Shown: positions 32,059-50,359 of the stretch, in pieces
Numbering within the stretch: position 1 is the stretch's first letter
How the letters are laid out: every line of letters begins with the position of its first letter
Source: Gammaproteobacteria bacterium
GTDB taxonomy: Bacteria; Pseudomonadota; Gammaproteobacteria; JACCXJ01
DNA length: 64,000 nt
Reading direction: 5' to 3'
NCBI GenBank assembly: GCA_050740435.1
Contig: JBOIDL010000001.1
Location: 5,484 to 69,483, forward strand
The notes under the pieces: generated by a model
Told to the model about the DNA's origin: nothing
Seen by the model: the letters and a program-made list of their open reading frames with translations, nothing else
The model's database searches: none
Made by a program: the position numbers and the translations under genes

Positions 32059-32072
32059 AGCATTAGCCCCTT

Positions 32073-33293
32073 ATGCTCCTAGAGGTCAAGGTTCCGATAC
32101 TTGCCGAATCGATCGCCGATGCGCGCGTGCTCGAGTGGCACAAGCAACCGGGCGATCGGATCGGCCGCGGCGAGCACCTGACCGATCTTGAGACGGACAA
32201 GGTGACATTGGAGATCACCGCCCCGGAAGCGGGAATGCTCAAGGAGGTCCACAAAAAAGCAGGTGAGACGGCATTGAGTCAAGAAGTCTTGGCGGTCATC
32301 GATACCGCTCACCAAGCTGAGCAGCCCGCGGATAAGGAGTCGAGCACGCCCAAACCGGCTACCGTGCCTAGGCGCCTAAGCGCGGAGGCGCCTTCCGAGG
32401 ACGTGACTCCGCTCAGCCCGGCCGTCCGCAGGCTGGTCACGGAGCACGCTCTCGATCCTAAGATCATTCCGGCGCGCGGGAAAAGCGGCCGAATCACCAA
32501 GCAAGACGTGCTCACTTATATTGAAGCCAAAGATACCGGTCTGGTTCCACCGCTGGCCCAGCAGAAGGATCTCGCGGACTCCGACACGGGTCAGCGTCCC
32601 GCGAAGCGCCTCGCCATGAGCCGCTTGCGCTTGCGCGTTGCCGAGCGCCTCTTGGCGGCGCAACGCGAGAACGCGATCCTGACCACGTTCAATGAAATCA
32701 ACATGCAGCCGGTCATGGCGCTTCGGGAGCGTTATCGCTCGGTGTTCGAGGCGCGCCATGGCGCGCGCTTGGGGTACATGGGCTTTTTCTGCAAGGCCGC
32801 GGTGTCGGCGTTGAAAAAGTTTCCGATTGTCAATGCTTCCATCGACGGTTCCGATGTCGTGTACCATGACTACTATGACCTCGGAATCGCGGTCAGCTCG
32901 GAGCGTGGGCTCGTGGTCCCCGTGCTTCGCGACGTTGACCGGATGGGCTTCGGCCAAATAGAAATCTCGGTCAAGGAATTCGCTGAAAAAGCGCGGGATG
33001 CGAAGCTCGGCATCGAAGAGCTTAGCGGCGGCACCTTCACCATCACCAACGGCGGCGTGTTCGGTTCGCTCTTATCGACGCCCATTATCAACCCGCCCCA
33101 GAGCGCGATCCTCGGCATGCACCGGATCCAAGACCGGCCCGTGGCGGAAGAGGGGCAAGTGGTGATCCGTCCGATGATGTACGTCGCATTGTCCTACGAT
33201 CACCGCCTCATCGACGGACGCGAAGCCGTGCAGTTTCTGGTCACGATCAAACAACACATCGAAGATCCGGCGCGGATCCTGATCGAGGTCTAG
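32073..33293 (+). CDS. sucB: Dihydrolipoyllysine-residue succinyltransferase (E2 of 2-oxoglutarate dehydrogenase)
   Basis: 406 aa; N-terminal lipoyl domain (…[13 protein letters not shown]…), Ala/Pro linker, C-terminal catalytic domain with DHRLIDG. Confidence 0.9.
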
Positions 33294-33296
33294 GGC

Positions 33297-34715
33297 GTGG
33301 ACCGCTACGACGTCGTGGTGGTGGGCGGCGGGCCAGGCGGTTATGTCGCGGCTATCCGCGCCGCCCAACTCGGTTTTACAACCGCTTGCATCGACGCATG
33401 GGTCGATGCCGCCGGTAAACCCGCCTTGGGCGGGGTGTGCCTGAATGTCGGTTGTATTCCTTCCAAGGCGCTGCTGGATTCCTCCCACCTCTACGAGACG
33501 ATCGGCCGCCATGCCAAGGATCACGGGATCGCGGTCAGCGGGCTCAGCCTCGACCTCCCGTCGATGATGCTCCGCAAGGATAAAGTCGTACGCACCCTGA
33601 CCCAGGGCATCGCCGGATTATTTAAGAAGAACAATATAACGTGGCTCGCGGGAGGAGCGCGCCTGTTGGGCGACATGCGCGTCTCGGTGACCGAACGCAC
33701 GCGCACCGATGCGTCCGTGATCACGGCCTCGCATATCATCATCGCCACCGGTTCGGTACCTGCCGCGCTGCCCGGCATCGAGATCGATAACGAGTTGATT
33801 TGCGATTCGACGGCGGCGCTAGCATTTTCGGAAGTCCCGAGGCGCTTGGGCATCATCGGCGCCGGCGCGATCGGGCTTGAGCTTGGAAGCGTGTGGCGGC
33901 GTCTTGGCTCGGAGGTCGTTATTTTGGAGGCATTGAGCGAGTTTCTGCCGGGCACGGATTTCGAGATCGCGCAAGCCACGGCGAAAGAACTGGCGCGGCA
34001 AGATCTGGCGATCCGCTTAGGCTGCACCGTGACCGGCGTGAGCGTGAACGGGACGGAGCTCCGCGTTGAGTACCAAAAGGATCAAGGGCAACACGATCTG
34101 GCCGTGGACAGACTGATCGTCGCGGTCGGACGGCGCCCGAATACCGAGGGGCTCGGTCTCGCGGAATGCGGAATTAATCTCGATGGGCGCGGCTTCGTCG
34201 AGGTTGACGATCGGTGCCGCACAAACCTGAGAGACGTGTTCGCCATCGGCGATGTCATTGGCGGGCCGATGCTGGCCCATAAGGCCTCCGAGGAGGGTAT
34301 GGCGGTGGCGGAAACCATCGCCGGTCACGCCACCGAGGTGAATTACGCTTGTGTCCCATCGATCATTTATACCTGGCCGGAGGTGGCTTGGGTGGGTCAA
34401 ACAGAACAGTCGTTGAAGTCGAATGGCACGCTGTTTCGGCGCGGGGTGTTTCCGTTCCTAGCGAGCGGACGGGCGCGCGCCATGGGCGAGACCGCGGGAC
34501 TCGTCAAAATCCTGGGCGATGCCGAAAGCGATGCCTTGCTTGGGGTGCATATCTTCGGCCCGAACGCCTCGGAATTAATCAGCGAAGCGGTGATCGCGAT
34601 GGAATTCGGCGCCAGCACCGAAGATCTAGCGCGCGCTATCCACGCCCATCCGACGCTCGCGGAAGCCATGCACGAAGCCGCGCTCGCCGTGGATAACCGC
34701 ACGATAAATCTATAA
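33297..34715 (+). CDS. lpdA: Dihydrolipoyl dehydrogenase (E3)
   Basis: 472 aa; FAD motif VVVGGGPGGYVAAI, redox-active disulfide GGVCLNVGCIPSK, C-terminal HAHPT(L/M)AEA interface motif. Confidence 0.9.
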   Translation: MDRYDVVVVGGGPGGYVAAIRAAQLGFTTACIDAWVDAAGKPALGGVCLNVGCIPSKALLDSSHLYETIGRHAKDHGIAVSGLSLDLPSMMLRKDKVVRTLTQGIAGLFKKNNITWLAGGARLLGDMRVSVTERTRTDASVITASHIIIATGSVPAALPGIEIDNELICDSTAALAFSEVPRRLGIIGAGAIGLELGSVWRRLGSEVVILEALSEFLPGTDFEIAQATAKELARQDLAIRLGCTVTGVSVNGTELRVEYQKDQGQHDLAVDRLIVAVGRRPNTEGLGLAECGINLDGRGFVEVDDRCRTNLRDVFAIGDVIGGPMLAHKASEEGMAVAETIAGHATEVNYACVPSIIYTWPEVAWVGQTEQSLKSNGTLFRRGVFPFLASGRARAMGETAGLVKILGDAESDALLGVHIFGPNASELISEAVIAMEFGASTEDLARAIHAHPTLAEAMHEAALAVDNRTINL

Positions 34716-34893: not shown

Positions 34894-37800
34894 ATGGTAA
34901 AACGGCGCACAAAGAAACCACCGGCCGATCGACCGAGGCCCGGTGGGGATGAGGCACGCCCTGTGGCGGACGCATCTACCGATGCGGATGGGGCCGGGGA
35001 AGACTACCCAAGGGACTTCCCGGTGGTCGCGATCGGTGCCTCGGCCGGGGGGCTCGAGGCCTTGAAGAGGTTCTTCAGCGCCATGCCGGCCCAGAGCGGC
35101 CTCGGTTTCGTGGTGATCCCGCATCTCGATCCCACCCATGTGAGCCACCTGCCGGAGTTGCTGCGCCGGCATACCCCCATGCCGGTCGAACAGGCGCACG
35201 ATGGGGCGCCGGTCCAGGCCGAGCACGTCCACATCATCCCGCCGAACGCGTTGCTGACGATCAAGGGGGGCGTCCTGCATCTCGCGGCGGCGGTGGCTCG
35301 TCCCGGCATACCGCGGCCCATCGACGGCTTCTTGCGGAGCCTGGCGGAGTACCAACAGGAGCGGGCCATCTGCATCATCGTCTCGGGCACCGGCAGCGAC
35401 GGCACGCTCGGTCTCAAGGCGATCAAGGCGGAGGGCGGCCTGGTGATGGTCCAGAGCCCGGTCACCGCGGAGCACGACGGGATGCCCCGCAGCGCCATCG
35501 CCACCGGGCTCGTGGATTACGTGCTCCCTGTGGAACAGATGCCCGCGGCGCTGCTCGAGTATGTCGAGCATGCCCATCTGCGTGGCGGTCCGATCCCGGT
35601 CCCCGCCGGCACGCGGCACGACCCTCTGCACCCCATATTAGCCCTGTTGTGCACTCGGGAAGGGCATGACTTTCGCTGTTACAAGAAGGCCATGCTGTTG
35701 CGCCGTATCCAGCGGCGCATGGGCCTCAATCATATCGCCGCGATCAGCGACTACGGCCAGTACCTCGGGGACACCCCGGCCGAGCTCAAGGCCCTGGCCA
35801 AGGACCTCCTGATCGGCGTGACCGAGTTCTTCCGCGAGCCCGAGGCCTGGGCGGTCCTCGAAGCGGAGGTGATCCCAGCGCTCGTGGCGGCCAAGCACCC
35901 CGAGGCGCCCCTGCGCGCGTGGGTCACCGGTTGCGCCACCGGCGAGGAGGCGTACTCCATCGGCATGTGCTTCCTCGAACGTGTGGCGGAGAGCGAGCGC
36001 AACGGCAAGCTCCAGATCTTCGCGACCGACATCGATAGCCACGCGCTCGAGATCGCCCGCCTGGGGACCTACCCGGAGGGCATGGCCTCGTCGCTCGCTC
36101 CGGAGCGTCTTACTCGGTTCTTCACCAAGTCCGACCACAGCTATCGGGTCAAAAAAGAGCTGCGCGAAGCGGTGGTGTTTGCACCGCAGAACCTGATCAC
36201 CGATGCCCCCTTTTCGCGCCTGGACCTCATCATCTGCCGCAATCTGCTCATCTATCTCGAGCCCGAGTTGCAGCAGAAGGTCATCGCGCTGTTTCATTTC
36301 GCCCTCAACCGCAACGGCTATCTATTCCTGGGCAAGTCCGAGACCGTCGGCCAGCAACTGAGCCTGTTCGAGCCGCTCTCGAAGAAGTGGCGCATCTACC
36401 GGCGCAGCGGGCCGGTCCGGCACGTGCCGGCGGACTTTCCGCTCATTCCGGAGGCCCTGCCCGGCGAGCGCCCGGGCGGGCCGCGGCCACACAAGCCCAG
36501 GCCCGGCGACCATGGCGAGGTGATCCGGGCGCTCCTGCTGGCGCGCTATGCCCCGGCCGCCGTGCTGGTCAACCGTGACTGCCAGACCCTCTATTTCCAT
36601 GGCCAGACCGACGACTATTTGGTGCACCCGGCCGGGGAACCGACCGGCGACCTCTTGGCCATGGCCCGCGAAGGTCTGCGCCTCAAGCTGCGCGCCGCCC
36701 TGCATAGGGCCATGCGGGAGGAGCAGCCGGCGATGGTGGTGACCCAGGTGAAACGGGGCGGGACCTCCCTTCCGGTACAGGTGACGGTGACGCCCGTGGA
36801 GGACCAGAGGCAGGGCGTGGGGCTGTGGCTCGTGACCTTTTCGGCGCCACCGGCGGCCGAGGCCGAGCCGGCGCCCCGCGCCATCGAGGAGTCGGCGGCG
36901 GTGGGCCACCTGGAAGACGAGCTCGCCAGCGTCAAGAAAGAGCTGGAAAGCGTGGTCGCGGACCTGGAGAGCGCCAACGAAGAGCTGAAGGTCTCGAACG
37001 AAGAGGCCATGTCGATGAACGAGGAGCTGCAATCCACCAATGAGGAATTGGAGACCTCGAAGGAGGAGCTGCAGTCCCTCAATGAAGAGCTCACCACGGT
37101 CAACGCCCAACTCGAGGAGAAGGTCGCCGATCTGGAACGCACCAACAACGACCTAGACAACCTGCTCGCCAGCACCCACATCGCGACCCTGTTTTTCGAC
37201 CGCGAGTTCCGCATCAAGCGCTACACGCCCGCCTCCACCCGCTTGTTCAACCTGATCCCCTCGGACCTCAACCGGCCGGTGGCCGATATCGCCAATAAGT
37301 TTTCCGAGGGTCACCTATTATTCGACGCCCAGCAGGTCCTCGATACCCTCACCCCGATCGAGCGCGAGGTGCGCACGCTGGGGGGCGAGTGGTACATCCA
37401 GCGGGTGCTGCCTTATCGGACCCACGAGGACCGCATCGAGGGCGTGGTGGTGATCTACACCGAGATCACCGAGCTCAAGCGCGGCGAGGAGGCGCTACGA
37501 GAGAGCGAGGAGCGGTTCCGCACGCTGGCCGAGACGGTGCCGGACATCATCTTCACCCACCGGCCCGACGGCTTCAGTGATTACACCAATCCGAGGTTCT
37601 ACGATCTCACGGGACTTCCGCCCGGTGCGGCGGACGGCTTCGGCTGGACGCAGGCCCTGCACCCCGAGGACTGGGCGCGGGATCAATCCCGCTGGCGGCA
37701 AGCGCTTGCGGCGGAGCAGTCCTACGAGATCAAATACCGCCTGCAGAGCGCGGCCGGCGGCTACCGCTGGCACCTGACCCGTGTCCGCCCGATAGCCGAC

Positions 37801-39021
37801 GCGAGCGGCCGAGTGATCAAGTGGTTTGGCGTGTCTTCCGACATCGACGATCTGGTGCACGCGCAGGAGGCCCTGGCGCAGGCCCAGAAGATGGAGGCGG
37901 TAGGCCAACTGACCGGCGGTATTGCGCATGATTTCAATAACCTCCTCACCGTCATCGCGGGTAATCTTCAGTTGCTCGAGGCGCGGCTCCAGGACGACGC
38001 GGCCGGGCAAAAGCTGCGGGACGCGGCGGCGCGGGCGGCCGAGCGCGGGGCGGAGCGGGTGCACCGGCTCCTGGCCTTTGCCCGCCGGCAGGTCTTGCAA
38101 CCGCAAGCGGTCGATTTGAATGAAATCGTCGCCGGGATGATGCCGGTCCTGCGCCAGACCCTGGGGGAGCCCATCGAGATCGCGCTAGCGCCGGGCCTGG
38201 ATCTATGGGCGGCGCTCGCCGATCCCGGGCAGGTCGAGGCGGCGCTCCTCAATCTCGCCTTGAACGCGCGCGACGCCATGCCCGACGGCGGCCGGCTCGT
38301 CCTCGAGACCGCCAACGGCACCCTCGGCCAGGACGCCACGGCGCCGGAGACCGAGCTCGCGCCGGGTGACTACGTGCTGCTCTGCGTGAGCGATACCGGC
38401 GAGGGGATGTCGGAGGAGACCAAGAGACAGGCCTTCGAGCCGTTCTTCACGACCAAGACGACGGGAAGGGGGAGCGGGCTGGGACTCTCCATGGTCTACG
38501 GCTTTGCCAAGCAATCAGGCGGGCAGGTGAAGGTCCAGAGCGAGCGCGGAAAGGGCACCACCGTCCAGCTCTACCTGCCGCGGGCCAAGGACGCCCCGGC
38601 CGCTGCCGTCGCCCAGGACCCCCTGCCCCTGGAAGACTTGCGGGGCCGGGAGGCCATCCTGGTGGTCGAGGATGATGCGGACGTGCGGGCGCTCGCCGTC
38701 ACCTACCTGTCCGAGCTCGGCTACCGCGTGCTGGAGGCCGCCGAGGCCCAGGCGGCCCTCGCCCTCTTCGAGGACGGTGAGGCCATCGATCTGCTGTTTG
38801 TCGATCTGGTGCTGCCGGGGACCCTGGATGGGCATGCGCTCGCGCTGGAAGCCAACAGGCGCCGGCCGGCTCTCCAGGTGCTTTACACCTCGGGCTATCC
38901 CAGGACTACCATCCAGCGTGCAGACAAGCTCGACAAGGGCGCGCGGCTGCTGATGAAACCCTACCGGCGCGAAGACCTGGCGCGGGCGGTGCGCGGGATC
39001 TTGGATGCCCCACCGGACTGA
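34894..39021 (+). CDS. Multidomain signalling protein: CheB methylesterase + CheR methyltransferase + PAS + coiled-coil + PAS + HisKA/HATPase_c histidine kinase + C-terminal receiver
   Basis: 1375 aa. Domains in order: CheB_methylest (VVAIGASAGGLEAL…), CheR (…RAWVTGCATGEEAYSIGM…IFATDID…), heptad coiled-coil (LESANEELKVSNEEAMSMNEELQSTNEELETSKEEL…), PAS, H-box AHDFNNLLTVIAGN, G-boxes (…DTGEGM…GRGSGLGLSMV…), REC (ILVVEDDADVRAL…DLLFVDLVLPG). Confidence 0.85.
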   Translation: MVKRRTKKPPADRPRPGGDEARPVADASTDADGAGEDYPRDFPVVAIGASAGGLEALKRFFSAMPAQSGLGFVVIPHLDPTHVSHLPELLRRHTPMPVEQAHDGAPVQAEHVHIIPPNALLTIKGGVLHLAAAVARPGIPRPIDGFLRSLAEYQQERAICIIVSGTGSDGTLGLKAIKAEGGLVMVQSPVTAEHDGMPRSAIATGLVDYVLPVEQMPAALLEYVEHAHLRGGPIPVPAGTRHDPLHPILALLCTREGHDFRCYKKAMLLRRIQRRMGLNHIAAISDYGQYLGDTPAELKALAKDLLIGVTEFFREPEAWAVLEAEVIPALVAAKHPEAPLRAWVTGCATGEEAYSIGMCFLERVAESERNGKLQIFATDIDSHALEIARLGTYPEGMASSLAPERLTRFFTKSDHSYRVKKELREAVVFAPQNLITDAPFSRLDLIICRNLLIYLEPELQQKVIALFHFALNRNGYLFLGKSETVGQQLSLFEPLSKKWRIYRRSGPVRHVPADFPLIPEALPGERPGGPRPHKPRPGDHGEVIRALLLARYAPAAVLVNRDCQTLYFHGQTDDYLVHPAGEPTGDLLAMAREGLRLKLRAALHRAMREEQPAMVVTQVKRGGTSLPVQVTVTPVEDQRQGVGLWLVTFSAPPAAEAEPAPRAIEESAAVGHLEDELASVKKELESVVADLESANEELKVSNEEAMSMNEELQSTNEELETSKEELQSLNEELTTVNAQLEEKVADLERTNNDLDNLLASTHIATLFFDREFRIKRYTPASTRLFNLIPSDLNRPVADIANKFSEGHLLFDAQQVLDTLTPIEREVRTLGGEWYIQRVLPYRTHEDRIEGVVVIYTEITELKRGEEALRESEERFRTLAETVPDIIFTHRPDGFSDYTNPRFYDLTGLPPGAADGFGWTQALHPEDWARDQSRWRQALAAEQSYEIKYRLQSAAGGYRWHLTRVRPIADASGRVIKWFGVSSDIDDLVHAQEALAQAQKMEAVGQLTGGIAHDFNNLLTVIAGNLQLLEARLQDDAAGQKLRDAAARAAERGAERVHRLLAFARRQVLQPQAVDLNEIVAGMMPVLRQTLGEPIEIALAPGLDLWAALADPGQVEAALLNLALNARDAMPDGGRLVLETANGTLGQDATAPETELAPGDYVLLCVSDTGEGMSEETKRQAFEPFFTTKTTGRGSGLGLSMVYGFAKQSGGQVKVQSERGKGTTVQLYLPRAKDAPAAAVAQDPLPLEDLRGREAILVVEDDADVRALAVTYLSELGYRVLEAAEAQAALALFEDGEAIDLLFVDLVLPGTLDGHALALEANRRRPALQVLYTSGYPRTTIQRADKLDKGARLLMKPYRREDLARAVRGILDAPPD

Positions 39022-39070
39022 TGCCGGCTCGGCCCTACGGGTGCGCGGTAATCTACTGCGTGATCGCCCG

Positions 39071-39556
39071 TTACAAGTCGCTAAAAATTGGCTGGAAGGC
39101 GGCGCCGTGGTCACGCTGCCGGGTGCCGGCTCTGTCCTTGGCCGGTACATTTGGCCCGACCAACTCGAGTATGCGACCCAACAACGCCTCGATCTCGAAC
39201 GGTTTTGGAAAAAAATCGACGATGCCGAGCTTGAGCCCCTGGACCACTGTCGCGCTCTCGGCGCGGCCGCTCATCAGCAGCACCGGGAGGCGAACCCCTT
39301 GCGCGTTGAGCTCCTTCAGAAGATCGAGACCGCTCATTCCCGGTAAACAAAAGTCCAGCACCAGGCAACGGGCCCCGATAGGCTCGCAGCGGTAGGCGCT
39401 CAAGAACGACTCGGCGGAGTCATAGGCCTCGGCGGCCAGCCCAGCCGACTCGCACAGCGTAGAGAGCAGCTCGCGCACCCCGGGTTCGTCATCGACGACG
39501 CACACGGGGCAGCCGCGGGCCCGGGGGTGATCCGGATAAACCGTCGAAACGGTCAC
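39071..39556 (-). CDS. Stand-alone receiver-domain response regulator (CheY-like)
   Basis: Receiver fold: VCVVDDEPGVRELL…LVLDFCLPGMSGLDLL…PVLLMSGRAE…; no output domain. Confidence 0.7.
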   Translation of the reverse strand: MTVSTVYPDHPRARGCPVCVVDDEPGVRELLSTLCESAGLAAEAYDSAESFLSAYRCEPIGARCLVLDFCLPGMSGLDLLKELNAQGVRLPVLLMSGRAESATVVQGLKLGIVDFFPKPFEIEALLGRILELVGPNVPAKDRAGTRQRDHGAAFQPIFSDL

Positions 39557-39833
39557 GACGAGACGCGGCCCGCGGGCACGCCTCCCTCCGCATGCCCCCT
39601 GCGGGCGCCCTTTGCGAGAAGCCGGATCACAGTTCCCATCGTGGTATATATACCTCGCGCGTTTGTATTCACAGGGACCTCGTGTTGCGGCACAATGCCT
39701 CCGCGTCGCAGGCGCGGGATCGTCAAACGCCGGGCTTTCGCCCGACTCACCGGGGACGCGCCGGGTCTAGCAGTCCCATCGCAGATAGGCTAACCCGCGG
39801 GTGTAACGGCTTTGAAGTCCCGGCGTCGCCATT

Positions 39834-39862
39834 GCGTAACGGTGGGTAACAGTGTGTAACTC
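39834..39862 (+). promoter_or_regulatory. Three GTAAC direct repeats at 10-bp spacing upstream of the OmpR-type regulator gene (candidate response-regulator binding site)
   Basis: GTAACggtggGTAACagtgtGTAAC at 39836-39860, plus a fourth GTAAC at 39803; 60 nt upstream of the 39919 start. Confidence 0.25.
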
Positions 39863-39918
39863 CATCCTACAGAGCCGGATCAATTGAAAATCGGAAGCGA
39901 TAGCACCCCGTGTGAACG

Positions 39919-40650
39919 ATGATGAGCGTTGCGCCGCATATCCTGGTCGTCGACGATGAACCGGACGTCCGGGAATTGATACGAACCTACCTGGCGCAAG
40001 AGGGTTATCGTATCAGCACCCTCGGAGACGGACAGGCCTTGCGCCGCGTGCTGGCCGGCCAGTCCGTGGACCTCGTCATTCTCGATCTCGGCCTGCCGGG
40101 CGAGGACGGGCTCTCCCTCGCGCGCTACCTGCGCGAGCATTACGAGGTCGGGGTGATCATCGTAACCGGTAAAGGGCAGACCCTCGATCGGATCATCGGT
40201 CTCGAGATCGGCGCGGATGATTATCTAGCAAAGCCTTTCGATCTCCGGGAGCTGCTGGCGCGGGTGCGCAGCGTGCTTCGGCGCACCCGTGGCCCCGCGC
40301 GGCAGGAGGCGGGCGAGCTGGGTACAGCACGTTTCGCGGGATGGCAGCTCGATCTCGCGAGCCGCCGTCTGTTGGCCCCGGATGGCAAAGAGGTGCCGCT
40401 GACCACGGGCGAGTTCGATCTGCTCGCGGTCTTCGCGCAGCATCCCAATCGCGTGCTCTCCCGCGACCAGTTGCTGGCGCTTACCCGCCATCGTGAGGCG
40501 GGTCCGTTCGACCGCAGCATCGACGCGCAGGTCGGGCGGCTGCGCCGGAAGATCGAGTCGGATCCGGAACGGCCGGTGCTCATTAAATCCGTGCGTGCTG
40601 TGGGTTACGTCTTCACGTCGTCCGTAAAACGCGACGCGGACCTTGATTAA
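39919..40650 (+). CDS. OmpR/PhoB-family DNA-binding response regulator
   Basis: 243 aa; receiver (ILVVDDEPDVRELI…DLVILDLGLPGEDG…) plus winged-helix trans_reg_C (…VLSRDQLLALT…VGRLRRKIE…IKSVRAVGYVF). Confidence 0.85.
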   Translation: MMSVAPHILVVDDEPDVRELIRTYLAQEGYRISTLGDGQALRRVLAGQSVDLVILDLGLPGEDGLSLARYLREHYEVGVIIVTGKGQTLDRIIGLEIGADDYLAKPFDLRELLARVRSVLRRTRGPARQEAGELGTARFAGWQLDLASRRLLAPDGKEVPLTTGEFDLLAVFAQHPNRVLSRDQLLALTRHREAGPFDRSIDAQVGRLRRKIESDPERPVLIKSVRAVGYVFTSSVKRDADLD

Positions 40651-40911: not shown

Positions 40912-42093
40912 ATGGCTGAAAACGTAGTTATCGTGGCCGCCGGCCGGACGGCCATAGGAACCTTTGGGGGAACGCTCGCGACTATTCCGGCGGCGATGCT
41001 GGGCGCGAAGGTGATCTCCGCGCTCTTGTCCAAGACCGGGATTAAACCCGAGGATATCGAGGAAGTGATCTTGGGCCAGGTCCTGACCGCGGGCGTCGGC
41101 ATGAACCCGGCGCGGCAGGCGGCGCTGGGCGCGGGTCTGCCGCACTCGGTGCCGTGTATGACCATCAACAAGGTCTGCGGCAGCGGGCTCAAAGCGGTGG
41201 CTTTGGCCGCGCAATCGATTCGTGCCGGTGATGCCGAGCTGGTGGTGGCCGGCGGTCAAGAAAGTATGAGTCTAACGCCGCACGTGCTCCCCGCTTCGCG
41301 CATTGGCCAGAAGATGGGCGAATGGAAGTTAGTAGATACGATGATCAACGACGGCTTATGGGATGTTTTTAATAATTATCACATGGGCATGACCGCCGAA
41401 AACATCGTCAAGAAGTACGCTATCTCGCGCGAGGAGCAGGACGCGTTCGCGGCGCTCTCGCAGCAAAAAGTCGAGGCTGCGCAAAAGGCCGGGCATTTCA
41501 AGAAGGAAATCATCCCCATCGAAATTCCGCAAAAGAAAGGTAACCCGATCATCTTTGACACCGATGAATTTCCCCGTCACGGCACGACCGCCGAAGCCCT
41601 GGGCAAACTGAAACCCGCCTTCGACCGGGAGGGCTCGGTCACGGCAGGCAATGCTTCCGGAATCAATGACGGCGCGGCGGGCGTGATCGTCACCACCGAA
41701 AGCAAGGCCAAGGCCCTGGGCCTGTCACCGCTGGCACGCATTGTTGCTTATGGCACGGCCGGCGTCGATCCCGCCATCATGGGGACAGGTCCGACGCCGG
41801 CGACGCAACGGTGCTTGCGGAAAGCCGGATGGAAGGTTCAGGATATAGATCTTATCGAGGCGAACGAGGCCTTTGCTGCCCAGGCGATTTCGGTGAACCG
41901 CGATATCGGGTGGGATGTGGCCAAGGTGAATGTCAACGGCGGCGCGATTGCGCTCGGCCACCCCATCGGCGCCTCCGGGGCGCGTGTCTTGGTGTCGCTG
42001 GTGCACGAGATGATCCGCCGCGACGTGCGCAAGGGCCTTGCGACCCTATGCATCGGCGGCGGCCAAGGCGTGGCTCTAGCGGTGGAGCGATGA
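40912..42093 (+). CDS. phaA: Acetyl-CoA acetyltransferase (beta-ketothiolase)
   Basis: 393 aa; thiolase motifs (…[12 protein letters not shown]…, …[19 protein letters not shown]…, C-terminal CIGGGQGVA). Confidence 0.9.
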
Positions 42094-42106: not shown

Positions 42107-42856
42107 ATGAAGACAGATCTCAGCGGGCGCGTAGCGCTGATCACCGGGGGAACGAGCGGGATCGGCGCAGCCATTTGCAAACAACTTGCTACGTCCGGCG
42201 CCAAGGTCGCCACCAATTACCGCAACGAACGAAAAGCGCAGCAGTGGTTGGCGGAGATGCGTGCCGAAAGCTACGAATTTAAGACTTACCGTGTCGATGC
42301 AACGGACTTCAATGCCTGCGGCCGGATGATCGGCGAGATCGAAAAAGGCCTGGGCCCCATCGATATCCTCGTCAACAATGCGGGCATCACGCTGGATGTG
42401 ACGCTACGCAAGATGAGCAAAGAGCAATGGGACACGGTCCTGCGGACCAACCTCGACAGTGTCTTCAACGTCACGCGGCACGTTATTTCGGGAATGATCG
42501 AGCGTGGCTACGGGCGGATCATCAATATCTCGTCCATCAACGGCCAGAAAGGTCAGATCGGGCAAACGAACTACACGGCTTCCAAGGCCGGCATGCATGG
42601 TTTCACCATGTCCTTGGCGCAGGAAGTCGCGCGCAAGGCGATCACGGTGAACACTGTCTCACCTGGGTATATCGCCACTGAGATGGTGATGGCGGTCCCG
42701 GAAAATATTCGCAATCAAATAATCGCCCAGATCCCCGTGGGACGTTTAGGAACTTCCGAAGAAGTGGCTTACTTAGTCGATTTTCTGGTGTCCGAGCGCG
42801 CCAACTTTATTACCGGCGCCGATCTCACCATCAACGGCGGGCAGCACATGATGTGA
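42107..42856 (+). CDS. phaB: Acetoacetyl-CoA reductase (NADPH-dependent SDR)
   Basis: 249 aa; intact [13 protein letters not shown]…YTASK motifs; follows phaA. Confidence 0.85.
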
Positions 42857-43392
42857 TGGCGACGCATCCAAGTTCCATCGGCGATACCGGTGGCGCCGCG
42901 AAGGGTGACATGCGTGTCATCAAAAAGTACCCGAATCGCCGCCTGTACGATACCGTCGAGAGCAAGTACATCACCCTCGCGGATGTGCGGACGCTGGTGT
43001 TGGCCGGGATTGAATTCTATGTCACCGACCAAAAAACCGGCGAAGACATCACCCGCAGCATCTTGCTCCAAATCATCACCGAAGAAGAGGACCATGGGGA
43101 ACCGTTATTCACCACCCATGCTCTCCTCCGAATTATCCGTTTCTACGGAGACGCGGTCCAAGGCTTGGCGGGCAATTTTATCGAACGCAGCTTAGGGATG
43201 CTTACCGAACAGCAGAAGCTATTCCACACGCAGATTAGCGACGCTGTTAAAAGCAATCCCCTTACGGCCTTGACCGAGATCACCCAGCGAAACCTGGAAA
43301 TCTTCAAGAAAATGCAAGACAGCTTGTTCCGGGCCGCCGGTATGACTAATCCCACGCAGAGCGAAGGCGAGGCGGGTAAGAAGCAAGAGTAA
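42853..43392 (+). CDS. phaR: Polyhydroxyalkanoate synthesis repressor PhaR
   Basis: PHB/PHA_accumulation regulator N-terminal motif IKKYPNRRLYDTVESKYITLADV plus C-terminal PHB_acc domain. The true start may be the internal Met preceding RVIKKYPN. Confidence 0.8.
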   Translation: MMATHPSSIGDTGGAAKGDMRVIKKYPNRRLYDTVESKYITLADVRTLVLAGIEFYVTDQKTGEDITRSILLQIITEEEDHGEPLFTTHALLRIIRFYGDAVQGLAGNFIERSLGMLTEQQKLFHTQISDAVKSNPLTALTEITQRNLEIFKKMQDSLFRAAGMTNPTQSEGEAGKKQE

Positions 43393-43438
43393 TCAACCTC
43401 AACTACCGGCGCAGAAAACTAACGAAAAATCGGGAGGC

Positions 43439-44452
43439 GTGATAGCGATGTTTCTCGACACGATGCCACTGAGAGTCTTCGAATATTGGAGTCGAGCCTG
43501 GACCACGGCCTTCACCTCGAGCGTCCAGGCCGCCACGGTGCTCGGGCAATCGCTCGATGCTTTAGCAATACATCAGCGGGACGAATGGAATCGGATCGTT
43601 TCCGCGGCCGCCGCGGAGCTTCGCCACACCTGGACGCAGTTCCGCCCGTACCACCGGTTGCAGCACGGCGCGCGAGTGGCTTTAGTCACCTGCGGAACCG
43701 GCAACATCGGAACGGCGATTTGTCTGCGGCTTGCGGACGCGGGTTTTTTAGTCATCGCCACGTATCCTCGCCACGAATCGGCTGCCGCGCGCCAATGGCA
43801 AGCGGCGAGACGCCGGGCCGCCTATGAACTTGGTATCGTCGCGTGTGATGTCGCGCGATGCGATGACTGCGCCAGTATGGCGAGATGGATCGAAGGTCAC
43901 TACGGTCACGTCGATATCCTGGTCAACTGCGTCGGCATCACCCGCGGCGACGGAAAACAAGAGAACTGGCAGACAGTTCTGGACACCAACCTCGACAGTG
44001 TATTCAATGTTACGCGTACCGTGATCGCGGCGATGACGGAGCGGCACTTCGGCCGGATAATCAATATCTGCTCGGTTAACGGGCCTCCTGGGCAATTCGC
44101 GCAAACCGATGTTGCGGCCGCCAAGGCGGGTATGCTGGGTTTTACCAAGTCCTTGGCTCGGCAGCTCGCGGATCAGGGGATCACCGTCAATACCGTATCA
44201 GCGGGATACGGGGCGGGCATGGTGGCGGAAATCCCGGATGAAATCCGCAAAGCGATTAAGGCGAAGCTTGCCAAAGGGCGATGGGGTGAGCCTGAAGAGA
44301 TCGCCGCCGCGGTCGACTTTCTCGCGGCGGACGCCAGCGGGTACATCACCGGAACCGACATCGCGGTCAACGGCCTACGGTTGACCTTGGATCCTGGCGA
44401 AGACAAAGGCGGCCTAAGGCCCCCCTGGCGGGGATTATCTCGGCCATCATGA
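43439..44452 (+). CDS. PhaB-like SDR paralogue with N-terminal 85-aa extension and degenerate catalytic motifs (predicted non-catalytic)
   Basis: Residues 90-330 align colinearly with the adjacent PhaB. However TGGTSGIG is replaced by TCGTGNIG, NNAG by NCVG, and NYTASK by DVAAAK (catalytic Tyr to Val). The unique N-terminal extension MFLDTMPLRVFEYWSRAWTTAFTSSVQAATVLGQSL… has no obvious family. Confidence 0.7.
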   Translation: MIAMFLDTMPLRVFEYWSRAWTTAFTSSVQAATVLGQSLDALAIHQRDEWNRIVSAAAAELRHTWTQFRPYHRLQHGARVALVTCGTGNIGTAICLRLADAGFLVIATYPRHESAAARQWQAARRRAAYELGIVACDVARCDDCASMARWIEGHYGHVDILVNCVGITRGDGKQENWQTVLDTNLDSVFNVTRTVIAAMTERHFGRIINICSVNGPPGQFAQTDVAAAKAGMLGFTKSLARQLADQGITVNTVSAGYGAGMVAEIPDEIRKAIKAKLAKGRWGEPEEIAAAVDFLAADASGYITGTDIAVNGLRLTLDPGEDKGGLRPPWRGLSRPS

Positions 44453-44504
44453 CGGCGATGATGTTTACGTAGACGATTGCTGGCCGCCGAAGGGCGCTCT
44501 CGCG

Positions 44505-44726
44505 CTAGCCATCCGTGATCTCGAGCCGCCGCTCAATGCGCTCTATGCGCGACTCGATTACACGAAAGCGATCGTTGCTCGCCGGAATCATGGCTACCAG
44601 CGCCGCAAGATGCTGCTCGACAGCAATCAGCCGGCTATCCATAAAACCGAGCTTCTCATTGACGCGATCGAGGCGGCCGCGGATCGCGCGGAGCTGCTCC
44701 AGCACCAAGTTTTCGGTTTCGGTCAT
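44505..44726 (-). CDS. Small coiled-coil protein, unknown function
   Basis: 73 aa, heptad-rich (…LEQLRAIRGRLDRVNEKLGFMDSRL…IESRIERIERRLE…); the MITE-B copy lies 30 bp upstream of its start. Confidence 0.35.
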   Translation of the reverse strand: MTETENLVLEQLRAIRGRLDRVNEKLGFMDSRLIAVEQHLAALVAMIPASNDRFRVIESRIERIERRLEITDG

Positions 44727-44759
44727 AACGATAGCAGGCCTCCTTTTACGGTCCGCTGA

Positions 44760-44902
44760 GAGTTTGCGAAAAAACCGTCGCGAGCGAAGGGAGGTCGCGT
44801 TCCGCCGGAGCGCAGGAACCGGAGTGTATGTTGGAATACATGAGGATTCCGAGCACCGCCGGAATGCGAGATCCCGAGTGCAGTAGGTTTTTTCACAAAC
44901 GC
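44760..44902 (+). mobile_element. MITE-like element family B (143 bp) with about 17-bp terminal inverted repeats GAGTTTG(C/T)GAAAAAACC and 3-bp target duplication TGA
   Basis: About 93% identical to the reverse complement of 51492-51634; perfect-ish TIRs; TGA at 44757-59 and 44903-05. Sits between the pckG stop and the small coiled-coil gene start. Confidence 0.65.
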
Positions 44903-44916
44903 TGATGTCCGTCCTG

Positions 44917-46965: not shown

Positions 46966-47352
46966 TTGATACCAGGAGATAAGTGTATGCAGCGAGAAAT
47001 GATCGACCAATGGGCCGCCTTGAGCAGAAGCGCCCTCGATTCCATGAAAGAGCTTGGTGCAATCAATGCCAAGCTATTGGAGAAAATGACGGCGCAGCAG
47101 GAAGCAATCCTCAGCACTTGTCTCGAGGCAAGCGCCAAGGAGGTGAATTTGATTAGCGTTGCTAAGGACCCGAAGGAATTACTGGCGCATCAAGCCGCTC
47201 TGGCCTCCGAATACGGCGCCAAGTTCGTCGAGATCGTCCGCGGCACCAACGATCTCCTCAGCGAGTGCAAGAATGAACTGAGCGCTTGGGCGGAACGGGG
47301 CATGGAGAAAACCGTCGCGCCGTTTGCCGACAAACCCGCGAAGGGCAAATAG
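46966..47352 (+). CDS. phaP: Phasin-family PHA granule-associated protein
   Basis: 128 aa, all-helical, phasin_2-like pattern (…LEKMTAQQEAILSTCLEA…); location in the PHA locus. Confidence 0.7.
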   Translation: MIPGDKCMQREMIDQWAALSRSALDSMKELGAINAKLLEKMTAQQEAILSTCLEASAKEVNLISVAKDPKELLAHQAALASEYGAKFVEIVRGTNDLLSECKNELSAWAERGMEKTVAPFADKPAKGK

Positions 47353-47539
47353 ACTCGCGATAAAAAATTCAATCATTGGCGTTACGCGACGTCATGCTCA
47401 CGGTCGTGGAGCAAGGGTTTCGTAGCTTGAACGGCTACGTTCTGTTACCGACTTGACAGTGAGATTTAGCCATAGTATGGTGCAGAGCAGCATTGCGATG
47501 TGCAATGCACAACGTCGGTAAATTTCGTGAGGTAACGTT

Positions 47540-47917
47540 ATGCAATTTGAAACTATGGAGCCTTGGGCTCAGTTTGGCAGCACCTGCTTTGCTTCTCTAA
47601 AGGAACTAGGCGAGATCAGCACCAAGACGTTCGAGAAGTTGGGCGAACAGCAACTCGGCCTGGTAAGCACCTATGTTGATACCGGTATCAAGGCCGTAAC
47701 CTTGATGACCGAATCGAAGGGTTATAAGGATCTCTTGGCGGGCCAAACCAAGCTCATGACCGAATACAATGAAAAGGTGCTTGACGCCGTGCGTAAAACC
47801 ACCGAGATCATGACAGATTCCAAGGATGAAATGGCGGCTTGGTTCGAGAAGACCCAGGAGAACGGGACCGCGCCGGTAAAGAAAGCCGCGCTCGCGGTAA
47901 AGAAAGCAACCGCTTAG
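47540..47917 (+). CDS. phaP: Phasin-family PHA granule-associated protein (second paralogue)
   Basis: 125 aa, same architecture as 46966..47352 (…FEKLGEQQLGLVSTYVDTGIKAV…). Confidence 0.7.
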   Translation: MQFETMEPWAQFGSTCFASLKELGEISTKTFEKLGEQQLGLVSTYVDTGIKAVTLMTESKGYKDLLAGQTKLMTEYNEKVLDAVRKTTEIMTDSKDEMAAWFEKTQENGTAPVKKAALAVKKATA

Positions 47918-47998: not shown

Positions 47999-49060
47999 TT
48001 ACCGGGCGGCGAGCCAGGATTTGACCGCGGGAGGGATCATCTGCTGCGCTTTGCCGCTCACATAGATCCCGATGTGTCCGCCGGGAAATTCGATCTCCGA
48101 ATAATCCGCGTTTCCCACGTATTTCCTTAACGCCTTCGAGGCAGCGGGTGGGACCAGGTGGTCGTCAGTGGCGAAGATGTTGAGCACCGGCATGGTGATG
48201 TTTTCGAGATCGACGTTTTTCTCACCGATCATCACCTCGCCTTTAATCAGCTCGTTATTCTGATAAAAATGTTTGATGAACTCCCGGAATGCTTCCCCCG
48301 CTTGATCGGGGCTGTCGAAGATCCACTTCTCCATGCGGATGAAATTCTTGCACAACACCGGATCGTCCAGGGTGTTGACCATATCGAGGTATTTTTGTCC
48401 CGAGAGCCGGAACGGTTTGAGCGATAGAAAGGTCCAGTTCAGCATCTCGCCCGGGATATTACCCATGGTCTCCGCCAGCAGATCGATGTTCACCTTCCGG
48501 ACCCAATGGCTGAGCAAATCCTGGGGCGTGTGGAAATCGACCGGTGTCACAGTGGTTATGAGATTCCGCACTTTATCGGCATGCATCGCGCTATAGCAAA
48601 GGCTAAACGTTCCCCCCTGGCAGATCCCCAAGAGATTAATCTTGTCCAGGCTATACCGTTTCCTGAGCACCTCCACGCAGCGATCGATGTAACCGTTGAT
48701 GTAATCGTTTAGTGATAAAAACCGATCGGCGCTGTCGGGATAACCCCAGTCGATCAAATACACATCGAGGCCGCCCGCCAGCAGTCCGCGCACGAGCGAA
48801 CGGTTCTTCTGTAAATCCGCCATGTAAGGGCGGTTAACAAGTGCGTATACGATCAGCACCGGCACCGGGTTCAGCTTCTCCACGAGCGGCTTAAACCGGT
48901 AGAGCGTGAGCTTGTCTTCGGTGTACACGGACTCTTTGTCCGTACACCCGACGTCGATATCACCGATTTCGTTCAGCGTCTGTAAACCTCGGCTGAGCTT
49001 AGCCCCGAACTCTCGGATTTCGAATAGGGCTTGATCCGGACGTATTTGAAATGGAAACAT
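47999..49060 (-). CDS. phaC: Class III PHA synthase catalytic subunit PhaC
   Basis: 353 aa; very close in sequence and length to the Allochromatium-type PhaC (MFP…RPD…; lipase box GICQGG; …DHLVPP…; …GGHIGIYVSGKAQ…). Confidence 0.9.
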   Translation of the reverse strand: MFPFQIRPDQALFEIREFGAKLSRGLQTLNEIGDIDVGCTDKESVYTEDKLTLYRFKPLVEKLNPVPVLIVYALVNRPYMADLQKNRSLVRGLLAGGLDVYLIDWGYPDSADRFLSLNDYINGYIDRCVEVLRKRYSLDKINLLGICQGGTFSLCYSAMHADKVRNLITTVTPVDFHTPQDLLSHWVRKVNIDLLAETMGNIPGEMLNWTFLSLKPFRLSGQKYLDMVNTLDDPVLCKNFIRMEKWIFDSPDQAGEAFREFIKHFYQNNELIKGEVMIGEKNVDLENITMPVLNIFATDDHLVPPAASKALRKYVGNADYSEIEFPGGHIGIYVSGKAQQMIPPAVKSWLAAR

Positions 49061-49063
49061 GAG

Positions 49064-50359
49064 CTATGCCCCCTTGCCGCGCTTTTGTGCGGTTTCGGCG
49101 CGCGCCGCCTGCTTGGGCCTAGGTCCGGCCACGGCAACCACGCCCACGGCGGACGCCGTTCTCTTCGCCGGGATTCGCTCGCCGCGGCCTTCGCGCCCCG
49201 TACCGTTGCGAAGCGCCGCCAGATCCTTCCGCAACCGGGCGACGTCGCGTTCCAGCACCGTGACCTTCTCTCTCATGTCCTCGATGCTTTCGGCTTGGGT
49301 GCGCTCCTTTTGCGTGAGGCCGTTCAGCGCCTCTGCCTGAGATCTTAACCGCGCCTGCATTCCTTCCATCACGCTCGGATCGAATAGCGATCGAAACCCC
49401 GCGATCTCGCGCCGCAATTCCTGCTGCCGCCGCTGTACGGTCGTGATCCCTTGGTGGGTCGGCAAATTCAATGATCCCGCGACTTCATCAACGGCGGTTT
49501 GGTTGTGATGCTTCAACGCCATTAGCGCGTTGACCAGCCGTGCGTAAATGTCGGCGTATTCTTCCGTGAACACAAAAGCGCTGTACGCCTCTTCGCCACA
49601 ATCGACCCACAGATCATAGACCTCTCGCAGGGTATTGATTTCCTTGCCTTGCTCCGCGCGTTCGATGATCTTGGCGGCCAGCCGTTCGAGTGCATCGACC
49701 CCGAGCCGTCCGTGCGCATGCAAGTATTCCTGAAGCGCCTTTTGGTAACCCATGGTGAGACGCACGCCTCCCTGAGTTTGCTCTTGCCATTCGCGCATAT
49801 AGCCGACCGCGGGGACCGACAAGACCTGATCCATGCGTTCGCGGATCTGGCCCGCGACGCCGCCCAAACCCTCGGGTTTCACCGACCGTAAGAAATCACC
49901 GGGCAGCAACGAGCTGCTCGAGAACATGCGCGACCAGGTGTCCATCGGCATTTCGAAAAACGGTAGCAGGCCGCGCAAGGCGCTGGTCACGTCCGAAGCG
50001 CTGCCGTGAGTGAAACCCGCTTTCAGTTCATTGAGCTTGGCCGCGAACAGATCCTTCCAGTTCGATCCGGCCTGCGCGCCTTCGGCCAGGTTGCGTGTCA
50101 GCTTGCTGAACTCCTCTCCTAGGCGCAGAAAGGTCTTTCCTTGCCGCACGATACTTTGAAAAAAGTCCTCTCCAGCTGCCGGGGCGGCAGGCGCCGCGGT
50201 TTTTGCCCACAGATCCAAAGCCGCCGTCCACGGAACCGCGAACGCTTGGGAGCTAGTCGATGGCTCCATGGAGTGCCTTAAAATATGTGACCAGGCGTCC
50301 CAAAAATTTTTCTGCGATGCCATCCAATCGTCTTTCGAGACGGGGCTACTATCAGTCAT
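49064..50359 (-). CDS. phaE: Class III PHA synthase subunit PhaE, with extended Arg/Ala-rich C-terminal tail
   Basis: 431 aa; N-terminus MTDSS…DDWMASQKNFWDAWS parallels the PhaE N-terminus; sits directly upstream of and co-oriented with phaC. Confidence 0.85.
   Translation of the reverse strand: MTDSSPVSKDDWMASQKNFWDAWSHILRHSMEPSTSSQAFAVPWTAALDLWAKTAAPAAPAAGEDFFQSIVRQGKTFLRLGEEFSKLTRNLAEGAQAGSNWKDLFAAKLNELKAGFTHGSASDVTSALRGLLPFFEMPMDTWSRMFSSSSLLPGDFLRSVKPEGLGGVAGQIRERMDQVLSVPAVGYMREWQEQTQGGVRLTMGYQKALQEYLHAHGRLGVDALERLAAKIIERAEQGKEINTLREVYDLWVDCGEEAYSAFVFTEEYADIYARLVNALMALKHHNQTAVDEVAGSLNLPTHQGITTVQRRQQELRREIAGFRSLFDPSVMEGMQARLRSQAEALNGLTQKERTQAESIEDMREKVTVLERDVARLRKDLAALRNGTGREGRGERIPAKRTASAVGVVAVAGPRPKQAARAETAQKRGKGA

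Follow-up and report, generated by a model that had tools for sequence, protein, structure and literature searches.

A long PhaB homologue without its catalytic tyrosine in a gammaproteobacterial PHB locus: a candidate pseudoenzyme derived from a phasin–reductase fusion

The stretch of DNA analysed here (the window, 64,000 nt of contig JBOIDL010000001.1, positions 5,484 to 69,483, from the Gammaproteobacteria bacterium assembly GCA_050740435.1) carries a complete locus for poly(3-hydroxybutyrate) (PHB) storage, in which an intact open reading frame (ORF; 43439–44452, + strand) lies directly 3' of phaR and encodes a long homologue of the acetoacetyl-CoA reductase PhaB. This protein is very probably non-catalytic, as judged from its sequence, and the reading that we somewhat favour is that it is a pseudoenzyme, descended from a fusion of a phasin to PhaB and retained for a structural or scaffold role at the PHB granule in a close relative of USC-gamma, methanotrophs that oxidize atmospheric methane. 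A pseudoenzyme is most likely because the catalytic Tyr, the cofactor and substrate sites and the C-terminus have degenerated while the Rossmann core, helices αE and αF and the phasin module are under purifying selection, and a granule-associated role is the better founded in view of the profile-level homology between the N-terminal extension and the first half of phasins. Good support exists for the gene family and for its evolutionary state; from these we infer the function, including attachment to granules, inactivity as an enzyme and the partners in an oligomer.

The mechanical ORF begins at GTG 43439. A Shine–Dalgarno-like GGGAGG box (43432–43437) lies 10 nt 5' of ATG 43448 and 1 nt from the GTG, and the N-termini of the orthologues read MFLDT or a near variant. 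Because of this spacing and these orthologous starts, ATG 43448 is the likely start codon, which gives a coding sequence of 334 codons plus stop (43448–44452, +) with about 75 residues before the Rossmann fold, rather than the 85 of the preliminary description of this DNA. The extension (residues 1–75, 43448–43672) is a two-helix, apparently phasin-derived module, modelled by AlphaFold2 as two long helices (residues 6–31 and 36–65) before a confident Rossmann core. The PhaB-type short-chain dehydrogenase/reductase (SDR) domain that follows (residues 76–310, 43673–44377; Pfam adh_short and adh_short_C2) has a degraded active site, and the presence of the SDR fold is seen in the adh_short match (E = 2e-41), a core confidence score (pLDDT) above 90, and Foldseek TM-scores of 0.81–0.85 between the AlphaFold model and PhaB structures. 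The protein ends in an unconstrained tail (residues 311–334, 44378–44452; pLDDT below 50) in place of the conserved NGGLxxG end of the family. Alignment of orthologous DNA identifies this tail ('...EDKGGLRPP...') as read-through, the TAG stop of one orthologue (L002) being TTG in the window; among the orthologues the tails vary in length and frame, and the ratio of nonsynonymous to synonymous substitution (dN/dS, or omega) of the tail is 0.6. The window ORF crosses a terminator-like hairpin, AGGCGGCC-TAA-GGCCCCCC (44407–44425). The orthologues have a GC-rich hairpin, AGGCGGCC-TAA-GGCCGCCT (about 6960–6985 in L002), of which one arm is mutated in the window; it resembles an intrinsic terminator of the convergent gene for phosphoenolpyruvate carboxykinase (PEPCK), and is translated within the C-terminal tail in several orthologues.

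The identity of the gene as a PhaB paralogue, proposed in the preliminary description, is borne out by its alignment with the PhaB next to it, which covers 239 aa at 50% identity (E = 1e-70) and has just three short gaps. Its score against the PhaB model TIGR01829 is 267.1 bits, under the cutoff of 302.1. The catalytic Tyr of the YxxxK motif is replaced by Val222 (codon GTT, 44111–44113). In HMMER alignments to the PhaB structures 4k6c and 3gk3 no gap falls between the catalytic Ser and the Lys, and the window protein has neither a Tyr nor a His less than about 10 residues away from YxxxK (GQFAQTDVAAAKAGM), which together rule out a shifted alignment that restores YxxxK; the structure-based check advised in the preliminary description thus leaves Val on the position of the Tyr. 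The same description held that all three SDR hallmarks had been lost, and here the result is divided: the Tyr is gone and the Gly motif is degenerate, whereas Asn181, Ser209 (44072–44074) and Lys226 (44123–44125) are retained in the window, the catalytic tetrad Asn-Ser-Tyr-Lys being incomplete by its Tyr alone. In the sequence NICSVNG, the changed residue precedes the catalytic Ser209 and is not Ser209 itself. The NNAG motif reads NCVG in the target, where N-to-C is the norm in canonical relatives of the same family (mostly NCAG) and A-to-V is specific to the clade. The Gly-rich cofactor motif is TCGTGNIG (residues 81–88, 43688–43711; C82 at 43691–43693, N86 at 43703–43705), compared with TGGTSGIG in the adjacent PhaB, and departs from TGxxxGxG, of which the third Gly contacts the cofactor pyrophosphate in SDRs. 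The orthologues have TGGTG(D/G)IG, so that residue 86 is D, N or G, while G82C is private to the window.

Relatives of the protein were sought among 5.8 billion proteins, and their motifs were tabulated over 120 sequences. They fall into two groups. The first comprises eight intact orthologue clusters (P0001–P0008; 82–90% identity), among which one comes from the USC-gamma methanotroph 'Chromatiales bacterium USCg_Taylor'; seven of these eight lineages were also recovered as loci (L001–L007), which share the synteny phaA-phaB-phaR-target-PEPCK. Tyr-to-Val is found in the window and in 8/8 intact orthologues, while the catalytic Ser and Lys drift within the clade, with Ser-to-Pro in L001 and Lys-to-Arg in L001 and L004. 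The second group comprises more than 100 (about 110) clusters of 310–345 aa, with 43–58% identity and an N-terminal extension of 65–99 aa. About 95% of these long PhaBs are fully canonical, having TGGxGGIG, mostly NCAG, NISSVNG, NYSAAK, PGY and the C-terminal NGGLxxG. The conservation of the dead motif, which the preliminary description had named as a check, is seen throughout the intact orthologues. The gene is not a recently pseudogenised duplicate of the neighbouring phaB.

The pattern of change in the clade was examined at 109 positions where conservation among 70 active long PhaBs reaches 90% or more. The consensus of the USC-gamma clade keeps 93 of them, and the 16 changes are grouped at cofactor, substrate and catalytic positions. 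They include the third Gly of the cofactor motif (G86, now D, N or G), the change of NCAG to NCVG, a four-residue deletion after ITRD, in the post-β4 loop, K214P, N221D, Y222V, S223A, Y254H, I274L, P275A and the replacement of the C-terminal GL by RR. The αE block, GRIIN, AAKAGMLGFTKSLARELADQGITVNT (αF/βF) and EEIAxAVxFLA...YITGxDI are nearly unchanged. In SDR tetramers the main dimer interface is made by helices αE and αF. Because these blocks are kept and the changes cluster elsewhere, the fold and probably the oligomerization surface are preserved, while the lining of the active site has been lost. A comparison of the long and short PhaBs of six genomes, three per class, gives long/short identities in αE of the dead forms of 0.62–0.77, compared with 0.36–0.49 elsewhere in the protein (three genomes), which is suggestive and no more than a hint.

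It is well supported that the long PhaBs, in which a two-helix, apparently phasin-derived module of about 75–95 aa precedes a PhaB-type acetoacetyl-CoA reductase, make up a conserved family that had not been described before. In a neighbour-joining tree the family is monophyletic with respect to short PhaB (bootstrap 100/100), and the target groups with it. The gene order sucAB-lpd, phaA, short phaB, phaR, long phaB is found around three active long PhaBs and a degenerate one, most of which also have phasin, phaC and phaE genes close by, and the long PhaB is the fourth gene of phaA-phaB-phaR-X, beside a short PhaB, in the window and in loci L081, L083, L084, L085 and L166. This shared synteny with a coexisting short PhaB indicates that the target belongs to an old line of paralogues and did not arise by recent duplication of the phaB beside it. 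A recent local duplication of phaB, as a separate candidate origin, is ruled out by the ancient monophyletic long family and by its same operon position in distant genomes. A contig scan for cultured hosts found, among the matches listed, mostly short PhaB or FabG, together with at least three loci from metagenome-assembled genomes (L086–L088) with a long PhaB. Databases annotate long PhaBs simply as acetoacetyl-CoA reductase, and full-text literature searches found no description of a phasin–PhaB fusion, a natural phasin–enzyme fusion or a dead PhaB. The genomes with long PhaBs include probable methylotrophs: a gene for Fae (formaldehyde-activating enzyme) lies near an active long PhaB (L085, 11470–12018), and genes of the PqqD family lie 3' of two dead copies, P0103 and P0115 (L084, 9246–9530; L167, 2787–3074).

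The extension, which the preliminary description regarded as unique, has homologues in more than 100 clusters. These align around the core W-x2-S-(L/M/V)-(E/D)...S...(A/T)-E...(I/V)-(D/E), and a hidden Markov model (HMM) of the N-terminal extension matches the orthologues L001–L007 at E = 1e-11 to 1e-17. The related idea of a local duplicate that gained an N-terminal domain while dying does not survive, since a large and mostly canonical family inherited the extension from its common ancestor. Several lines of comparison connect it to phasins. Three of the extensions give weak, sub-threshold matches to Pfam Phasin_2, all in one register (profile positions 2–52). A profile built only from 40 diverse extensions (A1) and searched against 1.84 billion representative proteins finds, beyond long PhaBs, stand-alone proteins of 107–131 aa (E = 7e-6 to 1e-3), and 10/10 of those tested are Phasin_2 proteins (Pfam E = 1e-11 to 1e-21). 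HHalign comparison of this profile with an alignment of five phasins picked only by their genomic context in PHA loci (A4; including the two phasins of the window, 46966–47917) gives a probability of 95.8% (E = 7.6e-9), residues 4–61 of the window protein matching phasin residues 1–56; the controls reach at most 0.5% (30 column-shuffled phasin alignments) and 1% (reversed). The extensions of the Tyr-less clade alone give 92% against phasins (E = 6e-7). At the level of sequence profiles, homology between the extensions and the first 56 or so positions of Phasin_2 phasins is strong; it covers about half of the phasin domain of roughly 100 residues, and the window's extension by itself gives no Pfam match. 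This homology identifies the long PhaBs as probable natural fusions of a half-phasin to PhaB. Two further proteins with high scores against the N-terminal HMM (P0121, 1307 aa; P0128, 982 aa) reach them through 13 and 10 repeated stretches, respectively, and were judged from their sequence to be repeat or composition artefacts. In two unrelated metagenome-assembled genomes (L094, and L127 from a Hydrogenophilales bacterium) a segment resembling the extension and phasins lies directly 3' of short phaB, in stop-to-stop ORFs from 6730 (residues 213–268), an adjacency of phaB and phasin which suggests what the raw material for such a fusion could have been.

Loss of the catalytic Tyr extends beyond the orthologues. 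Four further long PhaBs lack it: P0025 (Ser-to-Ala, Tyr-to-Arg, Lys-to-Ala), P0103 and P0115 (Ser-to-Ala, Tyr-to-Cys) and P0111, in which it was lost by a small deletion. All Tyr-less forms fall into one clade in a neighbour-joining tree of the SDR core from which the motif columns were excluded (93/100 bootstrap), and this dead clade spans 43–47% identity with synteny retained. Selection on the gene was estimated as dN/dS by the Nei–Gojobori method over the seven metagenomic orthologues L001–L007, with a codon bootstrap for confidence intervals (CIs). The neighbouring genes give 0.11 (phaA), 0.11 (phaB), 0.14 (phaR) and 0.07 (PEPCK), and the target gives 0.42 as a whole gene and 0.41 without the C-terminal tail (95% CI 0.31–0.54), with 0.50 for the extension (CI 0.30–0.87) and 0.37 for the SDR domain (CI 0.26–0.52). 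At a dS of about 0.15, the ORFs of the window and of the eight orthologue clusters are all intact. In a second dead lineage (P0103/P0115; L084 compared with L167), dN/dS is 0.18 at dS 0.59, and the three downstream neighbour genes of the same pair give 0.04–0.18. Since the target's dN/dS is 0.41 compared with about 0.1 for its neighbours, and that of the second dead lineage is 0.18, selection after the loss of the Tyr is relaxed, about 4-fold in the target, and yet clearly still purifying. An essential residue whose loss is fixed in the orthologues, combined with continuing purifying selection, is the operational mark of a pseudoenzyme, and both are found here.

Several observations weigh against a retained granule protein, and most of them are shared with the leading alternative, in which no function was left after the loss of the Tyr and the gene is slowly decaying, its intact ORF and its omega below 1 reflecting incomplete decay or a residual constraint such as avoidance of misfolding or of operon polarity. 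The constraint on the target is about 4-fold weaker than that on the neighbouring genes. In a USC-gamma-like sister genome (L166, 6864–8014 of a 245-kb contig) the copy is interrupted twice, by a TAC-to-TAG nonsense mutation near codon 64 and by the deletion of 1 nt within the Gly motif, so that the gene, if these lesions are real and not assembly errors, would be dispensable at least there. In that locus the downstream region also differs, a DAO-like gene standing in place of PEPCK. The window protein has seven private substitutions at family-invariant positions (G82C, G125A, D167G, S208C, G218A, E239Q and P252A), close relatives show the changes of Ser to Pro and Lys to Arg, and the ORF, its stop codon gone, continues into terminator DNA, with tails that vary between orthologues. 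Apart from decay, the monophyly of the Tyr-less forms may be inflated by long-branch attraction in a neighbour-joining tree, the extension of the window alone has no Pfam or NCBIfam match even at E up to 10, and the raised αE identity comes from three genomes. Against decay, the CI of omega lies below 1 whether it is taken over the whole gene or over either domain, the window and all eight orthologue clusters have kept an intact ORF, and the changes spare the core of the fold and concentrate at the active site. The much older second dead lineage is under stronger constraint, and the dead clade, for all its sequence divergence, has kept its synteny. On balance, decay without function is unlikely.

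A different possibility is that the dead reductase serves as a ligand sensor, binding NADP(H) or an acyl-CoA (acetoacetyl-CoA or 3HB-CoA) and signalling to PhaR or to the synthase, which develops the suggestion of a regulatory partner of PhaR. The gene is in every case the next one after phaR in the operon, its Rossmann core is conserved, and a sensory instead of an enzymatic function is known for other Rossmann-fold proteins that bind NAD(P). The cofactor site, however, is not conserved, because the third Gly varies between D, N and G in close orthologues and the window has G82C in addition; and the substrate-lid residues K214, Y254 and P275 are changed, in a region that is modelled with low confidence. 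We regard a sensor as improbable. That the protein is still an active oxidoreductase, with a non-canonical catalytic arrangement or another substrate, would be in keeping with the retained Ser209, Lys226, Asn181 and PhaB fold of the window, but is highly improbable given the lack of a substitute Tyr or His near the YxxxK position, the degenerate cofactor motif, the lost C-terminus and the drift of the remaining tetrad residues in orthologues and in P0025.

The retained granule-associated pseudoenzyme suggests the following course of events. In the active long PhaBs, the phasin module presumably tethers the reductase to the PHB granule or to its phasin layer. One clade, which includes the window, lost the catalytic Tyr, and its Gly motif for the cofactor, its substrate-loop residues and its C-terminus degenerated as well; acetoacetyl-CoA reduction is there probably left to the adjacent short PhaB. 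On the most economical mechanism, the N-terminal helices would attach the dead protein to the granule or phasin layer, and it would assemble as an SDR oligomer, either alone or in mixed tetramers with the presumably co-expressed short PhaB, the latter of which would bring reductase activity to the granule. The granule-associated scaffold of the preliminary description is in this respect better founded than before, through the phasin-homologous extension, with binding itself predicted from that homology. More tentatively, and with less confidence than in the pseudoenzyme itself, it may be proposed that the fusion of a half-phasin to a second PhaB is a natural carbonosome metabolon of Gammaproteobacteria with class III synthases, and that the lineage including USC-gamma made of it a selected dead granule protein which scaffolds or regulates PHB synthesis, for example by recruiting the short PhaB or by modulating PhaR or PhaEC.

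At the head of the gene order in the window's PHB locus are sucA, sucB and lpd (29245–34715), and the operon itself begins with the β-ketothiolase gene phaA (40912–42093, +; Pfam Thiolase_N/C), followed by the canonical short acetoacetyl-CoA reductase gene phaB, whose motifs are all intact (42107–42856, +; TIGR01829, 366.3 bits against a cutoff of 302.1), and the gene for the PHA (polyhydroxyalkanoate) synthesis repressor phaR (42853–43392, +; TIGR01848, 142 bits against a cutoff of 109; Pfam PHB_acc_N/PHB_acc). The start of phaR overlaps the stop of phaB, the target starts 55 nt 3' of phaR, and a promoter and terminator scan found nothing above shuffled expectation separating the target from phaR. 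The GTP-dependent PEPCK gene and a small ORF lie on the opposite strand between the target and two stand-alone Phasin_2 genes (46966–47352 and 47540–47917, +; PF09361, E = 1e-14 and 7e-17), beyond which are the class III synthase gene phaC (47999–49060, −; Pfam Abhydrolase_1/PhaC_N) and phaE (49064–50359, −; Pfam PHA_synth_III_E). The gap of about 460 nt between the target and the convergent PEPCK gene (44453–44916) holds the small ORF (44505–44726, −; 73 aa), which is 97% conserved in L001, is absent in L002 and L004, where PEPCK lies within about 60 nt of the target, and has only weak, sub-threshold family matches (MtrG, HalX). A sensor-kinase block stands between lpd and phaA in the window (34894–40650), containing a 1375-aa hybrid protein with CheB methylesterase, CheR methyltransferase, PAS, HisKA/HATPase and receiver domains, and two response regulators (39071–39556, −, and an OmpR-type regulator at 39919–40650). 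It looks like a lineage-specific insertion, because in related genomes (L081, L083, L084, L085 and L166) the genes of 2-oxoglutarate dehydrogenase are immediately 5' of phaA.

For annotation, the label of acetoacetyl-CoA reductase is very probably wrong for the Tyr-less clade, including the USC-gamma genomes, and metabolic reconstructions should count the short PhaB only. The dead clade offers a clean transition from enzyme to pseudoenzyme with the intact paralogue in one operon, in graded states over lineages, from canonical, through Tyr-less and under selection, to nonsense plus frameshift. The long PhaBs provide a testable handle on the organization of monomer supply at the granule surface. 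Because PHB storage is thought to aid the survival of USC-gamma on trace methane (PMC13333085), a lineage-specific granule protein could be relevant to their physiology.

Among known systems, the best sequence and fold matches are the characterized PhaBs (TIGR01829; 3VZP, 4N5M, 4K6F and 3GK3), which share with the target the classical SDR fold, 42–50% identity, a place in the pha operon and the αE and αF sequence blocks. The target differs in its Val in place of Tyr, degenerate Gly motif, 4-aa deletion after β4 and replaced C-terminal NGGxxM, and the characterized PhaBs are without its 75-aa N-terminal module. The human mitochondrial ketoacyl reductase, a heterotetramer of HSD17B8 and CBR4, offers a functional analogy, a precedent for an SDR subunit in a scaffold role; HSD17B8 is an active enzyme and this complex is without a phasin module, while the heterotetramer suggested for the target is hypothetical. 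The canonical long PhaBs of uncultured Gammaproteobacteria (such as P0095, P0013 and P0019) belong to one monophyletic family with the target and have the homologous extension, the position after phaR and 43–52% identity, but they keep TGGxGGIG, NCAG, Ser, Tyr, Lys, PGY and NGGL where the target clade is degenerate. The Phasin_2 proteins (PF09361), including those encoded in the same PHA locus at 46966–47917, align over their first 56 or so residues with the extension, which is predicted to be helical; the target, in contrast, has half a phasin domain, fused to an SDR domain, and is a putative granule binder. Fusions of PhaP to enzymes have been engineered for the immobilization of enzymes on granules (PMC5658603), and, if the present reading is true, the long-PhaB family would be their natural counterpart.

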